Assembly: GCA_024278935.1 (NCBI GenBank)
Contig: JAJRSF010000007.1
Location: forward strand, 66,799-130,798
DNA from: Candidatus Zixiibacteriota bacterium
GTDB lineage: Bacteria; Zixibacteria; MSB-5A5; GN15; FEB-12
Direction of reading: 5' to 3'
DNA length: 64,000 bases
This document shows positions 3,794-49,596 of this stretch, in pieces; the stretch's first letter is position 1; each line of letters begins with the position of its first letter. The translations under genes were made by a program, and so were the position numbers. Under the pieces are notes generated by a model that saw only the letters and a program-made list of their open reading frames with translations, ran no database searches and had not been told where the DNA came from.

Positions 3794-3843
3794 TTATTTC
3801 TTGAGCTTGCAATTTCTCAATCGCCTACCATTTGAATTCTTAC

Positions 3844-5166
3844 TTACCCTGCTTCGGTCACCCTTTTCTTAAGCGAAACGAATAACAATCCGAAACCTAA
3901 GACCATGCTAATACCTGATCCAAAAAGTATTCCACCCTTTGCGACCTCAAGCATGCTACCTTCTAAAGCAAGCGATGCGATGAACAATGACATCGTAAAC
4001 CCGATACCTGCAAGCAACCCTGCCCCGACCATCGTCAGCCAGTTTACATTATTCGGTAGTTTCGCCCATCCAACTCCAATGACTATAGATGATGCCAAAA
4101 GAATCCCGACTGGTTTACCTAGCACTAGCCCAAGGATAATAGCTATCGACAATGATTCTTGTAAACTTGAAACATCTATAAACACAGCCGCATTAGCTAA
4201 AGCAAAAAGAGGCATAATGACAAATGCGACCCACGGATGTAAAGCAGTTTCAAGACGTTCAAGTGGAGATATTGATTCTCTGAGGGTAAACTGTACTTCT
4301 GTCGACATACTAAATTCTGATTTCTCAATTTCACTCTTTTCACTTTTCGCAAACCTTACTCCAAGCGTAGCGATCGCTTCTCTTACTGTTTTACGATTCA
4401 CCATCCCTGTCGCTGGCGTCATCATACCAAGTATCACACCCGCAATTGTAGGATGAACCCCTGACTTCAGAGTGAACAGCCATATCGCACATCCGACCAA
4501 CAGATAGACACCAACATTTCGTACCCCTAGTTTGTTCAACAGATAAATAAGTCCAAATCCTGAAACCGACAAAACAAGCATCGTCATTTGTATCGTTTCC
4601 GTAAAGAATATGGCAATAACCGAAACAGCTAAAAGATCATCTACGATCGCAACCGATAAGAGGAAAATTTTCAGACTATGGGGTACTCTATCACCGAGAA
4701 GACTTAATATGCCTACAACAAAAGCAATATCGGTCGCCATAGGAATCGCCCAGCCGACTTCGGCAGGTTGCCCACTCTGCAAGCTCAGATATATAATCGC
4801 CGGTGTGATTGCCCCGCCAACTGCCGCAGCAGCAGGTAAAATAATTTTACGCGTTTCGCTTAACTCACCACTGGTAAGTTCACGTTTGAGTTCAAGCCCG
4901 ATAACGAAGAAAAATATAACCATCAGACCATCGTTGACCCAGTACCATAACGGATAGGAAATCGCAGACTCGCCGATTGTCAAACTGAGAGTTTGATTCC
5001 AAAAAGCATGATAGGCTGAGGCGTATGGAGAGTTGGCAACCAGTAATGCAATTATTGTACAGGCAAGAAGAACCATGCCGCCGGATGCTTCCAGATGAAA
5101 AAACCGCTGGAATGGCTTAGTAAGTTTTTGGACAGGGCGCAATTTCTGTTCTGAATTCATTTGCAT
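3844..5166 (-). CDS. nhaA: Na+/H+ antiporter NhaA
   Basis: 440 aa polytopic protein. FFHLEASGG, WVNDGLMVIFFFVIGLELKRE and ATDIAF motifs are characteristic of NhaA. Confidence 0.9.
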   Translation of the reverse strand: MQMNSEQKLRPVQKLTKPFQRFFHLEASGGMVLLACTIIALLVANSPYASAYHAFWNQTLSLTIGESAISYPLWYWVNDGLMVIFFFVIGLELKRELTSGELSETRKIILPAAAAVGGAITPAIIYLSLQSGQPAEVGWAIPMATDIAFVVGILSLLGDRVPHSLKIFLLSVAIVDDLLAVSVIAIFFTETIQMTMLVLSVSGFGLIYLLNKLGVRNVGVYLLVGCAIWLFTLKSGVHPTIAGVILGMMTPATGMVNRKTVREAIATLGVRFAKSEKSEIEKSEFSMSTEVQFTLRESISPLERLETALHPWVAFVIMPLFALANAAVFIDVSSLQESLSIAIILGLVLGKPVGILLASSIVIGVGWAKLPNNVNWLTMVGAGLLAGIGFTMSLFIASLALEGSMLEVAKGGILFGSGISMVLGFGLLFVSLKKRVTEAG

Positions 5167-20002: not shown

Positions 20003-20815
20003 ATGAAAACAATATATACGATTCTCGCAATTTGCATTATTCTACTCATCCCGCAATTCACGCACGCACAAAATGTAGAAAGTACGACCTCAATGTATGA
20101 CATTCCGCCTCGTTGGTTGGTCGATATGCCAACTGCCGGAACTCTCCCCCGTGGCTACTACAACATCGGTATCCGCACCTACCCCGATGGTGGTGCGATT
20201 GTCAATACCGACATCGGACTTTCCAACCGTCTTACTATCGGAATCTCATATGGTGGCGATGCTGTCCTTTCTAACATTACTCCAAACTGGAACCCATCGA
20301 TTGAGTTTAACCTTAAATTTCGTTTAATAGACGAACTCGAATATTTCCCCGGAGTTTCAATCGGTTTTGCATCACAAGGGAATGGTCGTTTTATAAGTTC
20401 TTTTGACAGATACACATTTAAGTCACGCGGATTTTATGTTGTCGCAAGTCGTTCATTTTATTTTTACCAATGGACCGCCGGATGGCATTTTGGGATGAAC
20501 CTTACTCAAGAGAATGGTTTTGATAAAGAAGATGATATTAATTTCTTCGGAGGTTTTGATGCAACCTTCAAATACAACTTGGCTCTGATTGCCGAATACG
20601 ACTTAGCTCTCAATGATGACCGTTCGACACTCCCTGATGGTTTCAGTCCAAACACATTTGGCGGCAAAGGACGCGGATATTTTAACCTTGGTATCAAATG
20701 GTTGTTCACTGACAATTTAGAATTGGAAGCTATCTTAAAAGATATGTTTATCAACAGCCATGAAGCCGAAGCTATCACCCGTGAGATTAGAATAAACTAC
20801 ATCGACCATTTTTAG
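20003..20815 (+). CDS. Hypothetical secreted beta-barrel outer-membrane protein
   Basis: 270 aa. Signal peptide MKTIYTILAICIILLIPQFTHAQ, alternating beta-strand pattern, C-terminal ...INYIDHF. Confidence 0.5.
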   Translation: MKTIYTILAICIILLIPQFTHAQNVESTTSMYDIPPRWLVDMPTAGTLPRGYYNIGIRTYPDGGAIVNTDIGLSNRLTIGISYGGDAVLSNITPNWNPSIEFNLKFRLIDELEYFPGVSIGFASQGNGRFISSFDRYTFKSRGFYVVASRSFYFYQWTAGWHFGMNLTQENGFDKEDDINFFGGFDATFKYNLALIAEYDLALNDDRSTLPDGFSPNTFGGKGRGYFNLGIKWLFTDNLELEAILKDMFINSHEAEAITREIRINYIDHF

Positions 20816-20860
20816 TAGGCTGAAGCCTATTTTATAATCATGTCCTAACAAAAGAATTTA

Positions 20861-20889
20861 GTAGGTCAGGTCTTTCCGAGACCTGACCT
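20861..20889 (+). repeat. GTAG-headed REP-like hairpin followed by a T-run (terminator of the 20003-20815 gene)
   Basis: GTAGGTCAGGTCTTTCCGAGACCTGACC followed by T7. Near copy of 3766-3793. Confidence 0.7.
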
Positions 20890-20997
20890 TTTTTTATGCA
20901 TCATCCGAACCCCTTCCCTGCGAACGCAGGGATCCAGTCCTTTCATAAAATAAAACGTAACTCTAGAAAAAAAATTCTATTCAATATGTACCGAATA

Positions 20998-21023
20998 GAA
21001 ACCCACCCTAAAGGGTGGGCTAC
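20998..21023 (-). repeat. GTAG-headed REP-like hairpin (GTAGCCCACC family)
   Basis: The reverse complement reads GTAGCCCACCCTTTAGGGTGGGTTTC. A related copy lies at 41975-42000. Confidence 0.65.
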
Positions 21024-21061
21024 CCAGCTTATTAGAGGGGATACAATTATAAAAAACATAA

Positions 21062-21109
21062 GTAGGTCGGGTTCCAACAAGCAACCGATAGGTTGATACA
21101 GAACCCGAC
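21062..21109 (+). repeat. GTAG-headed long hairpin with a nested inner hairpin
   Basis: GTAG + GTCGGGTTC ... GAACCCGAC (9-bp stem), with inner CAACC/GGTTG. Confidence 0.55.
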
Positions 21110-21171
21110 AAGCAAAAGTTATCCACATTGCAAAACAACTTTTTCGTTGTAATTTGATGAGCGTGTTTTAG

Positions 21172-21789
21172 TTACAGGGAAATGGGTTCGTTTTTCGGTA
21201 TAGCGTTTTTTTTGGCTTTCTCTTTTTCTTCCTGAGATTCTTTGTATTGTAGTTTACGAAGTAAATCATAAGTGCGGGAGAGTTGGCGGTCAATACGCAT
21301 TTCGTAATATAGGATTTGTGCGGAGAAATTTTTATCGGGGATTGCGTTTACACCAACTATGTTTGAAAAATCTTTAGTATTGGGAGATGAGAAGTCTAGC
21401 GGTTTGACATGGTCGTTTTCTTCCATCCTGTAGTTATGTCTGTGTAGCTCTGTATTAATTTTGTCATCGAGTTTATTGAGTTGTTTGTTTATGTGGGAGG
21501 TTTCGGCGAATGCAGCACGCTGAGTACGCCAAAGACAGTTGGCGATTTTTTTGATAAGGTATTCTTGGAAAAAAGATTGGGGGTTGAGTTCGGAGCGGAG
21601 GGCTTCGATAAGGAGTTCGTAGTCTACCCTGTTTTCGGTATGGTAGTTTGAGTCGATGACGAGTTTGCTTGAGTAGAGTCCAAAAGTAGTAGAGTTTTGT
21701 GATGCGGTTTCTTTGCCTTGTTCGGATTTTGGACCAGTTGATTCTTTGGCGTTTTCACGGTTGGCTATAGTTTGTTTTGATAGGGTCAT
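21172..21789 (-). CDS. Hypothetical protein (no recognisable domain; charged, coiled-coil-like C-terminus)
   Basis: 205-aa ORF starting MTLSKQTIANRENAKESTGPKSEQGK. Bracketed by palindromic repeat clusters on both sides. Confidence 0.45.
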   Translation of the reverse strand: MTLSKQTIANRENAKESTGPKSEQGKETASQNSTTFGLYSSKLVIDSNYHTENRVDYELLIEALRSELNPQSFFQEYLIKKIANCLWRTQRAAFAETSHINKQLNKLDDKINTELHRHNYRMEENDHVKPLDFSSPNTKDFSNIVGVNAIPDKNFSAQILYYEMRIDRQLSRTYDLLRKLQYKESQEEKEKAKKNAIPKNEPISL

Positions 21790-21885
21790 ATTTTTCCTCT
21801 TTAGTTTGGAATTTAATAAAGAGGAGGTGGTTGTTTTTTAGGGAGGGTTTGTAGGGAAAGTGAGGGTGTCATTCCCGTGAAAACG

Positions 21886-21937
21886 GTGCCTGCAGGCACT
21901 TAGGAATCCAGTTGAAAGGCAGACGAGGGCGTCTGCC
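21886..21937. repeat. Two short palindromic elements
   Basis: GTGCCTGCAGGCAC at 21886-21899 (compare 8859-8872) and GGCAGACGAGGGCGTCTGCC at 21918-21937. Preceded by GTAGGGAAAG... at 21851. Confidence 0.5.
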
Positions 21938-21951
21938 GCTCACTAAAATAG

Positions 21952-22902
21952 TTATAATTTAAAAACCTGGTTCCTAAAACTAATTACAGCCCTAATAAAT
22001 GAACATGAAACAAAGATATATTCCAATGATGTATCAGCAGAAACATCCCAAGAAGCATTTATTTCAGAGTCTACTCCATGGTCAGCACCATTTCTGATGT
22101 GCCCTAAATAAAATCCCATATTCTGTATTTTTGTTGGAATTTTATTCTTACTTTTCAGATCTACAAGCATCGAATTTATACCATGCTTAATTGGTGATAT
22201 TCCTTCAATATTTGAAAGTTCTGTAAGAAAAGAATCAATGGCATTACCCGCATGAACTATTGCATCTCTATAATTTCCAGAGTCAACTCTTAAAAGTGCT
22301 TGAGAAAGTGGATCAACTACCTCTGTTTCATTTACATGTGATATACACATTTCAGTAATTTTTTCTTTAATTATTTTCTTTGATTCTGCGAAATTTACAG
22401 CTGCTTTTGCCAAAACGTTTAATTTACTTTTAAAAGATAATTCACCTAATTTAAATTTCCCAGCACCTTCGGGTTTCAATATTTGGCAATAAGTTCCTAA
22501 GTCTAATAATGTATCTCTAATTTCGCTAATTTCAGCATCAAGCTCCAACAATGCTTTAGTTTCTCTTGCGGCATCAGAAGAATCGCCATGTTGCTTAATT
22601 CTTTGACAAAAAGACTCAAATGGTTTATACGACTCCAATAAAAAACTTAAAATCGAAATTTTTAAATCATCTTCACTTGGAATCAATAATTTCCCTAATG
22701 GGTGATGTGGACAATACTCCCCATTTTCGTTTTTGAGAACTTCTAAGTTAACAGCCAAATCCAATGCTGCTTTAGCTTGAGCTGTTGAGATACTTGAAAA
22801 TTCAGAGACAAATTCTACTGTTGATCTATTATTATTACAATAAACTGCATTAATAGAGTATACTAAATGCTCTGCTGTTGTTTGAGAAAAAGGAATTGAC
22901 AT
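21952..22902 (-). CDS. Hypothetical protein with a C-terminal HEPN-like (Abi_C/AbiJ-type) Rx4H motif; candidate toxin/effector
   Basis: 316 aa. ...AIVHAGNAIDSFL...LGHIRNGADHGVD... gives R-x4-H at 22078-22095. The N-terminal part looks wHTH-like. The locus looks markedly AT-rich by eye. Confidence 0.45.
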   Translation of the reverse strand: MSIPFSQTTAEHLVYSINAVYCNNNRSTVEFVSEFSSISTAQAKAALDLAVNLEVLKNENGEYCPHHPLGKLLIPSEDDLKISILSFLLESYKPFESFCQRIKQHGDSSDAARETKALLELDAEISEIRDTLLDLGTYCQILKPEGAGKFKLGELSFKSKLNVLAKAAVNFAESKKIIKEKITEMCISHVNETEVVDPLSQALLRVDSGNYRDAIVHAGNAIDSFLTELSNIEGISPIKHGINSMLVDLKSKNKIPTKIQNMGFYLGHIRNGADHGVDSEINASWDVSADTSLEYIFVSCSFIRAVISFRNQVFKL

Positions 22903-22908
22903 AGTAGA

Positions 22909-23637
22909 CTATTTATCTTCTTCTGAGATGATGTTAGTATTTAATTCTTTAAACATTTTTTGTAATTTTACACCTAGACCTTCAATGTCACTTGGAGTAC
23001 ATTGAATTTGTATTTGAATATTTATAGGATGAGTTTTATCTTCGACTTTTACTTTTATATCTTTTTTCTCGAATTCATATTTACTTTCATGCTCCTGATA
23101 GATTGTTGTGTCAGAGATAATACTAGAAACAGGTTTCGCATGTGAAAGTACTAATTTTCCATCATCTTCTATAAGTAAATTACTTACTTTAAATATTTCA
23201 ATTATTGTCCCTGCTCCTGTTAGAATATAATTCTTCTTAGGTAGGCCAGCACTATATGCTATATGAGATTGAAGTGTACTTTTATCCATAGATTTTCTAA
23301 TACGAATAGCAGATAATATTTTTGATAAAAACTCGTTATTAGTAACTAACTCTGACCATATTGAACACACTTCATCTTGATAATCGTGACTTAAAGCATT
23401 CGCTAACTTTTTACCTTTAAGTGTAAGTTTTTTCTTATTCCCACCTTCTATGATATTGATTGTTAATAAAAAACCATTGTTAGCACTTACAACAGTGTCA
23501 TGTGTTCCAAGTATAGATGCCACTTCTTTTGGTGGTTTTGGTTCGTTGAAAGAGTTATATGCTTGAATTATTTTAATTAATTCAGGATATGAAGAACTTG
23601 GTAATTTTATCTTTTGTTCAACCATTTTTATCTCCAT
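22909..23637 (-). CDS. Hypothetical protein, probable winged-helix DNA-binding partner of the HEPN-like protein
   Basis: 242-aa ORF 6 nt upstream of the HEPN-like gene. Has wHTH-like segments (PELIKIIQAY...EVASILGTHDTVVSANNGFL). No family recognised. Confidence 0.4.
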   Translation of the reverse strand: MEIKMVEQKIKLPSSSYPELIKIIQAYNSFNEPKPPKEVASILGTHDTVVSANNGFLLTINIIEGGNKKKLTLKGKKLANALSHDYQDEVCSIWSELVTNNEFLSKILSAIRIRKSMDKSTLQSHIAYSAGLPKKNYILTGAGTIIEIFKVSNLLIEDDGKLVLSHAKPVSSIISDTTIYQEHESKYEFEKKDIKVKVEDKTHPINIQIQIQCTPSDIEGLGVKLQKMFKELNTNIISEEDK

Positions 23638-23725
23638 GTTTAAATTATAACGTTAATAACAATTTTTGTTTCAAGGTACACCAACGTACACTGATGTTTT
23701 AAATAACCCCTTAGTATAATCAACT

Positions 23726-23754
23726 ATTATACCTATTATCGTTTATAATGTCAA
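23726..23754 (-). promoter_or_regulatory. Perfect-consensus sigma70 promoter driving the 22909-23637 / 21952-22902 cassette
   Basis: The minus strand reads TTGACA, 17 nt, TATAAT. It lies about 90 nt upstream of the ATG at 23637. Confidence 0.55.
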
Positions 23755-23866
23755 TTTGAAAGGTATAATTCATTTCTCCTACAAACTCTAACCTCTTTCA
23801 AATTACAAGTAATGCATAAGACACTTACGCTATTGACAATATTGGAACACCGACCTACGAAGTTTT

Positions 23867-24982
23867 TTATTCTGAGGATGCGAGGTAGCGGAGGGCGTTG
23901 GATTTGAGTTTTTCTTTATCGAAACCTTTCAAATCAGCTGTCTCTAAAAACTCGATAAACTTCAAGTCTATTTGTCCTATGCTTGTGCGTCCAAACTGCG
24001 GAGTGGACTCATCGACTTTCTCTTTTTCAAACTGGATATTCAACGAATACGATTTTTGTTTAAGTTCAGCAAGCACCGCTGTCGGTAAAGTCTTGAGAGT
24101 TTCTTCTGACACACCCGAAACTTTAAGACGGACAATTTTGTCCGATGATTTTATTTCGGCAAGTTTTTCTTTGATGATAGCAACAAGTTCATCACCGCGT
24201 TTTCCTTTTGCTTCTATAACAGGCATGTCAACCATGACACGGGAATGCACTTTGACAAAGCGTAAATCAAAGTTCTCAAGCTCAACAACGATGAAGCCTT
24301 TTTCGGCATCACGTTCTGATTGCGAAAGCCGTTAGGTTGAACCAGCGTAGTATGATTTTTCGGCAACTTTGCAGTAGTTATGAAAATGCCCCAATGCGGT
24401 GTAATCGAACTGTTCCATCAGTTTGAGCGGAAGTTCCTGCTCGCCCAAATCAGCCATCGAAAACTCGGGCATCCCTGCGGCAACGCCATGCATAATAAGT
24501 ACGTTGTGCTTGTAGTTCGCATCAGGTACGCATTGTGTCAGCTCTTTTTTTTGAATCTCTGTCGTCAAACAATGCGGTAATGCGAAGAGCTTCGTGTCGC
24601 CTATTGTAAAGGTCTCTAAGCCGATACCTGCCGATATATATAGATTGTCGATATGGTCGAAGATATTCAAAGCTGCCCCTATGTGAGGCTGTTTTGGGGC
24701 ATCGTGGTTACCAGAGATGATTACAGTCGGAATTTTGTGAACTTCAGCAAGTCGATGAAGCTGTTCCCCTGCTATGGCAATGATTTTGTTAGTCGGCCTG
24801 ACAACATGGAATATGTCACCGGCATGAATACAGATATCCGGTTTTTCCTCGATAATTTTATTAACCGCCTCGATGAAAGAATTGATGATATCTTCCTGCC
24901 TGAGGGTCAGCCCGCTCTCGCCTCGTTTGGGATGATTCTCGCCTGCCCCAAGATGGGTGTCTGCAATGTGACAAATTTTCAT
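23867..24982 (-). pseudogene. sbcD: SbcD/Mre11-family nuclease, interrupted by an in-frame TAA at 24332-24334
   Basis: ORFs 24332-24982 and 23867-24250 share a frame. Reading through gives ...KSYYAGST*RLSQSERDAEKGFIVVELENF... Phosphoesterase motifs HIADTHLG, GDIFH, GNHD and GHFH are present. Confidence 0.7.
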
Positions 24983-43104: not shown

Positions 43105-43787
43105 GCCCATATCCTCTTCCAAATTTGTCTGATAAACCTTAGAGTTACTTTGTACGGATTTATATATGATGTCGACCCATCATAAATTGTCTCGATAGAA
43201 ACTTCGGCGACTTCACAACCTACAACACCTGATTTGAACAACATCTCCGATTCAAAATCATAACCGATAGTTTTTAATCGTAAAGATTTAAGTAGCTCGG
43301 TCGGAATTAAACGATAACCCGATTGGCTGTCCCGTACTCGTTGAGTTGAAAATATCGAGATAATAAGTGAGGTCAAATTGTTTGTCAGCCAACGTTGAAA
43401 CGGCATATCTTTGTCCATCGAAATATCGCGGGTACCCATGATAAGACGTTTCCCATTATCTAAAGCATAGAACTTTGGGATATCTTCGGGAAGATGCTGT
43501 AGGTCGGCATCGATTGTTAAAACCGAGCGATAGTTATTTTCGATAGCATATGCAAAGGCTGCTTTTAAAGCGGCACCTTTACCTTGATTTTGCGGAAAGT
43601 TAATATGGTTCAGATTCTGTTCTTTTAAAACTTCAAGAGTATTATCAGCGGAACCATCATTGACAAAAAGAAGATTAGAGTCACAGACATAGACCCGCAA
43701 CCTTTTTGCGAGTTCAGGAATATACTTGGCGGCGTTGTAAGCCGGGACCACTACAAGTACGGCATGTTTGTTAAATTCAGCATTCAT
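43101..43787 (-). CDS. Family 2 glycosyltransferase (polyprenol-phosphate sugar transferase-like)
   Basis: 228 aa. VVVPAYNAAKYI, NDGSADNT and TIDADLQH (DxD region). Confidence 0.8.
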   Translation of the reverse strand: MNAEFNKHAVLVVVPAYNAAKYIPELAKRLRVYVCDSNLLFVNDGSADNTLEVLKEQNLNHINFPQNQGKGAALKAAFAYAIENNYRSVLTIDADLQHLPEDIPKFYALDNGKRLIMGTRDISMDKDMPFQRWLTNNLTSLIISIFSTQRVRDSQSGYRLIPTELLKSLRLKTIGYDFESEMLFKSGVVGCEVAEVSIETIYDGSTSYINPYKVTLRFIRQIWKRIWA

Positions 43788-47999: not shown

Positions 48000-48180
48000 A
48001 AGCTAAAGCATATAATTGTGAGAAACCCGACATACAAGTGCTGACAATAACGCCTATCAGCCAGCACCATCAATTATAGCAGATAAACAATTTTACACAA
48101 TTAACTTTATTATTCGTTTGTATTATAGCTTTGTAGCAGATAAATTAAGTTAGTCATACACTTAATGTTGGGAGTATATT

Positions 48181-49464
48181 ATGCGAATATTTTTTCTTCT
48201 ACTTATAGTATTAATTTTTAATACACAAGAAACCGATTGCAAAGATTACCTATTGAATCCATCACGAGGAATCGAGGGAATTGATATAATTATTGACACA
48301 TCAAATGTCAAAGATGTCATTGAATTATTTGGAAACAAGTACCAAACGATTAAGCAGTCTTCCTTAACTAATTTGTTTTTTGAAGATTTGGGATTAACTT
48401 TCTCTTATATGCCTCAAGACGCAAATTTTGTTATCAGAGAAATTTCAGTACAAGCTCCTTTTATTGCTCACACCTCAAATGGGATTGTCTTAGGGCAAAG
48501 TACAATGGAAAATGTTTGGGAGTTTTACAATCATAGGAGATGTTTCACTGGTTCAAATTATGCTTATAGACCACAAGAAGGAGTATCCTTTTATATAAAA
48601 CGAAAACCAAATCAAGATGGATTCGACCCTCAAGAGAAGATATTTAAAATCTCAGTAAATAATGATAATGAGGGCGGTACTCAATCAAGAATTAATTTTA
48701 GATTTAATTTGAAACCATATATAGCGAAGTTAAAGCATATAAAAACAATTCTTAGAGATTCAGAGAATTCATTGGATTCATTAAAACATTTTTTTAAATT
48801 GGATAAGATTGATGAAAACCCTGCATATCGGATTATTCATATCTCCAATCTTGAAAGAGATATAGATATTGAATTTAAGCAATATTATTATAACATTCAA
48901 ATACCACCTAGTGAATATCAAATCATTCTATTAGAAAATGATCATCAAATCATATATTCAGCTTTAAGAAAAATAGAAAAAAATTTGGATAGTTTAATTC
49001 TTGAAGTAGTAGATTATAAAAGACTTGATTCAATTATTCAATTTAGAAGAAATAATTATTATATGAGTATTGATATTCATAATCCGTTAGAATTCCCTAG
49101 TGCTTTATATGAATATGGGTATTTATGTGGTACTATAGGTACACCACCTGCAATTTGTAGAGCAATGTTAGAACTTGTACAAGCTAATGATTACAATGCA
49201 TTAAAAAAATGGTTACAATCTATGAATCCTGAGATTCAGGCTTATGGGTATACAGGCTTGGTTTTTCTAAGTTATAATGGGTTAGATTTATCTGATGACG
49301 ACAAACTTACTATGGATAAAGTAATTAATTCTAAAAGAGATATTAATACCTGCCAAGGGTGGACTCAGGGTGGTATGGTGAGGGTTGATACTCTTCTAAA
49401 TGATAATGTGCTAAAGGCTAATTACGAAGGCTTCAAAGCTCATGGATGGTTAAAGGGGAAATAG
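48181..49464 (+). CDS. Hypothetical secreted protein (orphan; AT-rich)
   Basis: 427-aa ORF with an N-terminal hydrophobic signal-like segment MRIFFLLLIVLIFNTQ. No recognisable family. Flanked by REP-like elements. Confidence 0.45.
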   Translation: MRIFFLLLIVLIFNTQETDCKDYLLNPSRGIEGIDIIIDTSNVKDVIELFGNKYQTIKQSSLTNLFFEDLGLTFSYMPQDANFVIREISVQAPFIAHTSNGIVLGQSTMENVWEFYNHRRCFTGSNYAYRPQEGVSFYIKRKPNQDGFDPQEKIFKISVNNDNEGGTQSRINFRFNLKPYIAKLKHIKTILRDSENSLDSLKHFFKLDKIDENPAYRIIHISNLERDIDIEFKQYYYNIQIPPSEYQIILLENDHQIIYSALRKIEKNLDSLILEVVDYKRLDSIIQFRRNNYYMSIDIHNPLEFPSALYEYGYLCGTIGTPPAICRAMLELVQANDYNALKKWLQSMNPEIQAYGYTGLVFLSYNGLDLSDDDKLTMDKVINSKRDINTCQGWTQGGMVRVDTLLNDNVLKANYEGFKAHGWLKGK

Positions 49465-49573: not shown

Positions 49574-49596
49574 TCGGACATGAATGTCCGACCTAC
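49574..49596 (-). repeat. GTAG-headed REP-like hairpin
   Basis: The reverse complement reads GTAGG TCGGACAT tca TGTCCGA. Confidence 0.55.

Follow-up and report, generated by a model that had tools for sequence, protein, structure and literature searches.

The 64,000-nucleotide (nt) stretch of contig JAJRSF010000007.1 of a Candidatus Zixiibacteriota bacterium analysed here (hereafter the window, whose coordinates are used throughout) contains an AT-rich cassette of two genes, A and B, both located on the minus strand. We infer, with a probability of about 0.55, that these genes form a module of the toxin-antitoxin (TA) or abortive-infection type, in which B would be a HEPN RNase and A its restraining partner. 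This proposal is put forward because of the consensus promoter of the cassette, its A-first gene order, the domain layout of A, the tight coupling of both genes, the invariant motif of B, their co-inheritance, their patchy distribution and foreign composition, and the frequent decay of their copies. In toxin-antitoxin, abortive-infection, CRISPR and retron systems alike, the effector is repeatedly a HEPN RNase. To our knowledge, few control modes of these RNases are understood, namely AMPylation by a minimal nucleotidyltransferase (MNT), binding of the RnlB type, and retron or ring assemblies. The association of a DUF4145-type HEPN domain with a partner that shares the effector's own nucleic-acid-binding module points to a different control logic.

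Two tightly packed open reading frames (ORFs) had been reported in a preliminary description of this DNA, made from the letters alone, and both are present: the TAG stop codon of A (22909-22911) is followed by a 6-nt spacer (TCTACT) and then by the ATG of B. The start of A had to be corrected, as the description had retained the longest ORF of 242 amino acids (aa). Translation probably begins at the second ATG (23625), since a GGAG Shine-Dalgarno sequence is located 6 nt upstream of it, since the alignment of A homologues begins at its methionine and since the public protein record P0013 corresponds to the resulting 238-aa product. The operon does have a consensus promoter of its own, as had been claimed; within 20700-24400, where this is the sole perfect match (Table 1), the overall number of promoter-like sites is not above chance.

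To describe the domains of both proteins, AlphaFold2 models were built as monomers, with 12 homologues for B and 44 sequences for A. The model of B, which has a predicted local distance difference test score (pLDDT) of 90 and a predicted template modelling score of 0.83, is composed of two N-terminal winged helices followed by an all-helical C-terminal domain. When this model is compared to the PDB with Foldseek, rank 1 is the HEPN protein TM0613 (1o3u), with a probability of 1.00 and a template modelling (TM) score of 0.63 on the target; AF_0298 (2hsb) reaches a TM score of 0.73 on the target, and the HepT toxins 5yep, 6m6w and 7ae2 are found with probabilities of 0.9-1.0. For the N-terminal half of B, the matches are proteins with tandem winged helices, among them SelB, RPC62 and IclR. 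By itself, the structure search gives moderate support to a HEPN fold. A search of PDB sequences with the B family profile gave only chance matches to superoxide dismutase. The Pfam family DUF4145 (PF13643), a recognised HEPN family (PMC3710099), is matched by 37 of 50 B relatives at E <= 1 when these are scanned singly (best 5.2e-5), the match region (aa 210-278) taking in the R-x4-H helix, and one database fragment of the B family (P0218) has a precomputed PF13643 label. Judging from these matches, the C-terminal domain of B appears to be a divergent sister or a peripheral subfamily of DUF4145. The earlier assignment of B to HEPN proteins of the Abi_C/AbiJ type therefore stands for its HEPN part, borne out by Foldseek, DUF4145 and the motif, and has to be abandoned for its Abi_C part: B has no match to PF14355 (Abi_C) at E <= 1, nor is this family one of the 25 that the 50 relatives match most often.

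The C-terminal stretch of B with its motif (...YRDAIVHAGNAIDSFL...LGHIRNGADHGVDSE...) is present as described, and the R-x4-H codons are located where they had been placed (Table 1). Among 50 B sequences, down to 21% identity, the invariant residues are F98, G241, R270, N271, D274, H275, G276, D278 and W285, and thus include both R270 and H275. An R-x4/5-H motif is found in all 119 cluster representatives whose sequence spans this position, in the form RxxxxHGxD in 103 of them and as other R-x4/5-H variants in 16.

The model of A has a pLDDT of 87 and contains tandem winged helices, followed by a linker whose pLDDT is below 50 and by a conserved C-terminal element. Its Foldseek matches are the recognition domains of BpuJI and Nt.BspD6I, the winged helices WH2-4 of SelB with selenocysteine insertion sequence (SECIS) RNA, ScpB and MntR. 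No family of Pfam, NCBIfam or PADLOC matches A, and no nucleotidyltransferase match is found in Pfam or NCBIfam; the two winged-helix-like segments and the lack of MNT features noticed before are thus both corroborated. Winged helices had, however, been ascribed to A only. B too has two of them at its N-terminus, which had been overlooked, and a profile-profile comparison shows its N-terminal module to be homologous to that of A (hhalign probability 92.7%, E = 4e-7). Two natural A-B fusions are known to us from the databases: P0167 (409 aa) joins A(1-~165) to B(~106-end), and P0059 (296 aa) joins A(1-~90) to B(~109-end). In both of them, the junction is located at the homologous winged-helix modules, and both winged helix 1 of B and the C-terminal element of A are missing. 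They could be recombination products or a Rosetta-stone sign of interaction between A and B, and would give only indirect support to A-B binding. The loss of winged helix 1 of B and of the A tail would be expected if these parts normally tether A to B.

The pair is not restricted to its source genome. Scanning about 185,000 genomes, one per species, revealed 41 B loci, sparsely and patchily distributed over more than 20 phyla, archaea included. They belong to Armatimonadota, Rhodothermales, Acidobacteriota, Nitrospirota, Nitrospinota, Chloroflexota, Planctomycetota, Gemmatimonadota and Cyanobacteria, as well as to Firmicutes, Actinobacteriota, Alpha- and Gammaproteobacteria, Spirochaetota, Marinimicrobia, Zixibacteria and two archaeal metagenome-assembled genomes (MAGs). 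Among 1.84 billion representatives, the B profile recovers 424 clusters at 50% identity, 145 of them at E <= 1e-30, nearly all of 315-325 aa and of the same architecture; full-length relatives of A and B number dozens to hundreds, at 30-45% identity. In 36 of the 41 genome loci, A immediately precedes B in the same orientation, the other loci comprising two contig ends, the truncated L024, L041 and L043, and one divergent archaeal copy. Seen from the A side, B is directly downstream in all 77 informative loci among 80 metagenome loci, the other three having no contig room. The gap between the stop of A and the start of B has a median of 11 nt (range -1 to 32, n = 79), compared to 6 nt in the window. 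No intact canonical B without A was seen; at the truncated copies (L024, L041, L043, L130 and L131), A is lost or truncated too. The A-B pair is obligatory. None of the three outcomes that the preliminary description had named as refuting its idea (no HEPN fold, an Rx4H that varies among homologues, a pair confined to this genome) was obtained.

An all-against-all BLAST comparison of 314 neighbour proteins did not reveal any conserved third gene, so that the module consists of two genes. As there is no conserved neighbour, as the pair is patchily spread over these phyla and as the cassette is the segment of lowest GC (G+C content), A-B reads as a self-contained, horizontally mobile two-gene operon. 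Its AT-richness, already noticed, was quantified: GC is 0.303 over 21952-23754, for a window mean of 0.383 (standard deviation 0.023, z = -3.5), which makes the cassette the lowest of all 1.8-kb stretches of the window, and the GC at third codon positions (GC3) is 0.19 and 0.17 in the A-B genes versus 0.22-0.45 in 34 other genes of the window. This composition fits recent acquisition from a donor of lower GC. Decay is also visible, short HEPN-only fragments of B being common in the database. Two such remnants, L130 2462-4489 in Ruegeria pomeroyi and L131 2705-4576, are disrupted copies, since the former directly adjoins an insertion-sequence transposase of the rve family and the latter a tyrosine integrase.

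A separate observation concerns the most divergent B (23% identity), in an archaeal MAG (L047 1631-3439). It has no A upstream, the place of A being taken by a divergently oriented gene of 269 aa that weakly resembles (E = 0.002) the winged-helix region of B. This locus may represent a variant architecture.

The following mechanism could be proposed for a TA or abortive-infection module. B would be the effector: its HEPN domain would dimerise to create a composite R-x4-H active site, as in other HEPN proteins, and B would cleave RNA in an R270/H275-dependent way without any metal cofactor, leading to translation and growth arrest. A, which would be translated first from the same mRNA as B, would be the neutraliser and probably also an autorepressor. 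Its winged helices could bind an operator at the consensus promoter and/or pair with the winged-helix module of B, and its C-terminal strand-helix, carried by the disordered tether, would dock on B and block the formation or the use of the HEPN active site. B would then be freed when A is lost, displaced or titrated. The triggers could be: (i) proteolysis of the linker, (ii) shut-off of host expression, or (iii) an invader nucleic acid or protein, which might be sensed via the shared winged-helix module.

Several points weigh against this proposal. We infer the RNase activity and toxicity of B, its direct binding by A, the autoregulation and the trigger from gene layout and from comparison with other systems. 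The HEPN call itself rests on Foldseek rank and probability, on the motif and on weak Pfam matches: the Foldseek E-values are between 1e-2 and 2e-1, none being <= 1e-3, which is explained by the three domains of the B query, and the B protein of the window matches DUF4145 at 13.3 bits (E = 0.089, aa 210-278) for a cut-off of 23.1 bits. Furthermore, MtlR-type relatives within the DUF4145-like HEPN proteins are regulators, not nucleases (PMC3710099). The strict 1:1 co-occurrence, with no orphan antitoxins, would hold for any obligate heteromer and is not specific to TA systems, and a comparison of six loci upstream of A did not reveal any obvious common motif that could be an operator. The genomic context points the same way. 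The 141 neighbours scanned (two genes per side) are mostly metabolic or housekeeping, the defence or mobility genes among them being two D12 methyltransferases, two integrases, and single Cas1, restriction endonuclease and CARF-like matches; these are at most suggestive, and the neighbours give no clear signal of defence islands, albeit without a formal background comparison. Finally, no B relatives are found in IMG/VR, GenBank phages or PLSDB plasmids, although TA and defence genes often ride there. As PHROGs has nothing for B either, carriage by phages or plasmids was rejected. A search of BFVD gave generic winged-helix matches only.

The main rival reading, rather unlikely in our opinion, is that A-B is instead a dedicated anti-phage or anti-plasmid immune system, with B still as the effector but with A as a sensor or co-effector and not as an antitoxin. 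Both proteins would then form a standing complex via their paralogous winged helices; once these helices recognise a nucleic acid or protein of an invader, the HEPN domains would be allowed to dimerise, much as RAZR is licensed by oligomerisation, and B alone would be inert and not toxic. Such a system would account for the presence of the same tandem winged-helix module in A and B, with its PDB resemblance to sequence- or structure-specific nucleic-acid readers (BpuJI, Nt.BspD6I, SelB WH2-4 on SECIS RNA), and for the absence of orphan genes in both directions, which suggests that both A and B are needed for function. It is also in keeping with the few loci that adjoin restriction-modification genes, Cas1 or integrases, and with the role of DUF4145 HEPN domains in trigger-activated defence (PMC13017515). 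These arguments are offset by the lack of any clear enrichment in defence islands, by the null results with PADLOC and NCBIfam, by its absence from all collections of phages, prophages and plasmids that were searched, and by the layout of A, whose DNA-binding domain, floppy linker and short conserved tail follow the classic plan of a type II antitoxin. It is because of this antitoxin-like layout and of the missing defence-island context that a TA function is preferred to an immune one. We hold it unlikely that A-B is a new class of nucleic-acid-sensing immune module of bacteria and archaea, in which the shared winged-helix module recognises a DNA or RNA structure specific to an invader, A is thereby displaced from the hetero-complex and B then dimerises into an active HEPN RNase; such an activation by partner swap would be unlike AMPylation of the MNT type, the simple degradation of an antitoxin or the assembly of RAZR into rings.

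A non-toxic regulatory or RNA-processing pair, in which the HEPN-like domain of B would be a ligand- or partner-binding module of the MtlR type and A a paralogous co-regulator, is very unlikely. The four winged helices of A and B do suggest nucleic-acid binding, the genomic surroundings are of the housekeeping type and the MtlR-like proteins within the DUF4145-like assemblage act as regulators (PMC3710099). Yet no conserved neighbouring target genes are found in about 120 loci, and the R-N-x2-D-H-G-x-D signature, which regulatory HEPN lineages commonly lose, is invariant here; a regulatory role is disfavoured for these two reasons. The extreme sparseness, the patchiness and the foreign composition of the pair would moreover suit a selfish or defence element rather than a regulator, and truncated copies disrupted by insertion sequences or integrases are frequent. 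As for a chance pair of ORFs, or an annotation artefact in an AT-rich spacer with a fortuitous Rx4H, its probability is close to nil: short motifs of the Rx4H kind are common by chance, and neither A nor B has an above-threshold Pfam family, but this explanation is refuted by the many full-length relatives (424 clusters for B), the confident predicted folds and the conserved synteny.

A-B was also compared to the named systems. The preliminary description had been unable to match either protein to one of them, and our searches lead to the same result: PADLOC-DB v2 gives no match at E <= 1 for A or B, and NCBIfam r20 gives none for B and only a chance-level partial match to TIGR03565 for A (E = 0.088, 11.8 bits for a 518-bit cut-off). 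By sequence comparison, the pair belongs to no named toxin-antitoxin or defence system. What is new is a putative HEPN toxin module with a paralogous winged-helix partner, the theme of HEPN toxins being itself well known.

The nearest sequence relatives of the C-terminal domain of B are DUF4145 proteins, i.e., RAZR/PD-T7-4, Ishtar and BxaP. The DUF4145 catalytic domain of RAZR/PD-T7-4 is a proven R/H-dependent RNase that acts in abortive infection (PMC13017515), and DUF4145 domains are implicated in Ishtar (bioRxiv 10.64898/2026.07.06.735840) and BxaP (PMC10799925). These three are single-gene systems, whereas A-B has a separate partner gene; in place of the two winged helices of B, RAZR carries a zinc finger, Ishtar a beta-rich domain at its C-terminus and BxaP a HEAT-like domain. 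The PADLOC models, that of PD-T7-4 included, do not match A or B. AbiJ/Abi_C proteins (PF14355) similarly combine an N-terminal DNA-binding-like region with a C-terminal HEPN domain, but AbiJ consists of one gene only, and its N-terminal domains are of other kinds (PMC3710099).

Two-gene systems provide closer parallels in organisation. HepT/MntA (HEPN-MNT, type VII) is likewise a two-gene operon with an R-x4-H HEPN protein, and HepT structures are among the matches of B. Its partner is, however, a minimal nucleotidyltransferase, while A is a tandem winged-helix protein with no adjacent MNT; neutralisation by AMPylation is therefore not expected for A-B. In addition, B is more than twice as long as HepT, has domains of the nucleic-acid-binding type and shares a paralogous module with its partner. 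In the type IX Retron-Kva2, a winged-helix protein of about 245 aa mitigates by itself the toxicity of its HEPN partner, and largely suppresses it (bioRxiv 10.64898/2026.07.14.738597), which is a precedent for the restraint of B by A proposed above. The differences are that Retron-Kva2 has a reverse transcriptase and a non-coding RNA (ncRNA), neither of which is present at the locus of the window or conserved next to A-B elsewhere, that its HEPN protein is of 174 aa and without a canonical Rx4-6H, the motif of B being canonical, and that its winged-helix protein has two alpha-beta-beta-alpha-beta domains and one helix-turn-helix, in contrast with the tandem winged helices of A. This likeness is one of analogy, and no evidence of homology was found.

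A-B has the traits of a type II TA operon in being bicistronic and tightly spaced, with an antitoxin-like gene upstream and a strict co-inheritance. It recalls the classical type II TA and AbiEi-type systems in that A comes first and begins with a DNA-binding fold, to which a disordered region and a short, conserved element at the C-terminus are added, and also in its tiny gap, its strong promoter and a patchy spread that fits horizontal transfer. It departs from them in the homologous N-terminal module shared by A and B, which is unusual, in that no orphan A was seen and in its absence from PLSDB; nor is B a nucleotidyltransferase of the AbiEii type. The A-B family, which numbers 424 clusters and is spread over more than 20 phyla, archaea among them, has no name in Pfam, NCBIfam or PADLOC. 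Should it prove to be a defence system, the catalogue of these would gain a new entry; even as a mere addiction module, it would widen the set of known HEPN partners. Being compact (1.8 kb, its own consensus promoter included), it is directly testable in E. coli.

Table 1. Positions of the A-B operon, of the domains of its products and of other features of the window (residues of A in the numbering of the 242-aa ORF).
Feature	Position (strand)	Residues	Remarks
Gene A	22909-23625 (-)	238 aa	Predicted antitoxin/regulator; longest ORF reaches 23637 (242 aa)
A, winged helix 1		17-71	AlphaFold2
A, winged helix 2		87-164	AlphaFold2
A, disordered linker		~165-205	Variable length, ~40 residues; low pLDDT, poor conservation
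A, conserved C-terminal strand-helix		~203-235	Homologue alignment
Gene B	21952-22902 (-)	316 aa	Predicted RNase effector
B, winged helix 1	22708-22902 (-)	1-65	AlphaFold2
B, winged helix 2	22447-22671 (-)	78-152	AlphaFold2
B, HEPN/DUF4145-like all-helical domain	21973-22434 (-)	157-310	AlphaFold2, Foldseek, Pfam
R-x4-H motif (predicted catalytic)	22078-22095 (-)	R270-N-G-A-D-H275	Codons; in the HEPN domain of B
Sigma-70 promoter of the A-B operon	23726-23754 (-)		TTGACA-17 nt-TATAAT; sole 12/12 consensus match in 20700-24400
5' leader of A	23626-23719 (-)		~95 nt; unstructured; GGAG at 23635-23632
GC-rich hairpin	21918-21937 (-)		GGCAGACG-CCCT-CGTCTGCC; 14 nt past the B stop; followed by TTTC
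Perfect 13-nt inverted repeat, GTTATAATTTAAA	21951-21963 and 23639-23651		First arm overlaps the B stop codon; second arm just 5' of the first A ATG
GTAG-headed REP-like palindrome	21062-21109 (+)		GTAG GTCGGGTTC ... GAACCCGAC; outside the operon, flanks the insertion region
Further GTAG-headed REP-type copy	20861-20889		Same side of the cassette as 21062-21109
Partial inverted REP-type copy	23842-23858		Opposite side of the cassette
205-aa ORF	21172-21789 (-)	205 aa	Directly downstream of the cassette; no family match
sbcD/mre11-like gene	23867-24982 (-)		Adjoins the cassette; one in-frame TAA at 24332-24334
AT-rich orphan gene	48181-49464 (+)	427 aa	GC 0.30, GC3 0.22; adjoins the ribosomal protein L17 gene

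The leader of A is without stable structure, as its RNA fold has a z-score of +1.6, i.e., it folds worse than shuffled sequence, and it is unmatched in an Rfam scan, which found nothing relevant at the locus; a known ncRNA or a structured leader was excluded on both grounds. The hairpin past the end of B, a possible weak terminator, was skipped by the terminator scan because its T-run is too short. The inverted repeat GTTATAATTTAAA is present in two copies only in the window, and at least two matches are obtained in 8 of 100 shuffles. Its arms could pair both ends of the mRNA. It is probably due to chance, since it is AT-rich and not conserved at other loci; terminal inverted repeats of a mobile element were rejected as a family feature, the repeat not being reproduced in 86 loci. 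Scans of 250-nt flanks for inverted repeats gave sporadic cases only, at L097 and L002.

Repeats had been noticed on one side of the cassette. The palindromes found there are of the repetitive extragenic palindromic (REP) type, and a partial copy is also present on the other side (Table 1). The GTAGGTCRG motif occurs five times in the window, for 0.3 expected, with further sites at 43499 and 49588. At an unrelated locus from Methyloglobulus (L002), a different GTAG-REP (GTAGGTTGGGGT...) closely brackets A-B, at 1949-2023 and 3803-3879. The REP repeats that flank A-B may mark REP-rich insertion hot spots.

The gene that adjoins the cassette beyond the promoter is sbcD/mre11-like, and its frame is split by a TAA into an N-terminal part of 216 aa and a C-terminal ORF of 127 aa, which share one frame; this interrupted sbcD is either a pseudogene or a sequencing error. 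It is indeed partner-less, as had been stated: sbcC is found neither beside it nor among the large ORFs of the window scanned against Pfam. The cassette occupies the place where sbcC would normally come after sbcD. On the other side, the 205-aa ORF directly downstream of B was rejected as a member of the module: it is unlike the gene that follows B in L001, has a normal GC and is a database singleton. The flanking genes are housekeeping ones, including, besides sbcD, pabB/pabC-like genes and genes for a YjbH-like outer-membrane protein and a sigma-54 response regulator; the flanks also hold TamA/TamB and exopolysaccharide genes, with ribosomal protein genes farther off, and proteins of the PorV, PEGA and DUF5683 types, which may hint at the FCB group, are among the neighbours in the window.

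Another AT-rich gene, of 427 aa, is located at a distance from the cassette and has no match in Pfam or PHROGs. A copy of GTAGGTCGG is found near it, at 49588-49596, as well as a weaker match, with 3 mismatches, at 48019-48035. This gene looks like another foreign insertion.

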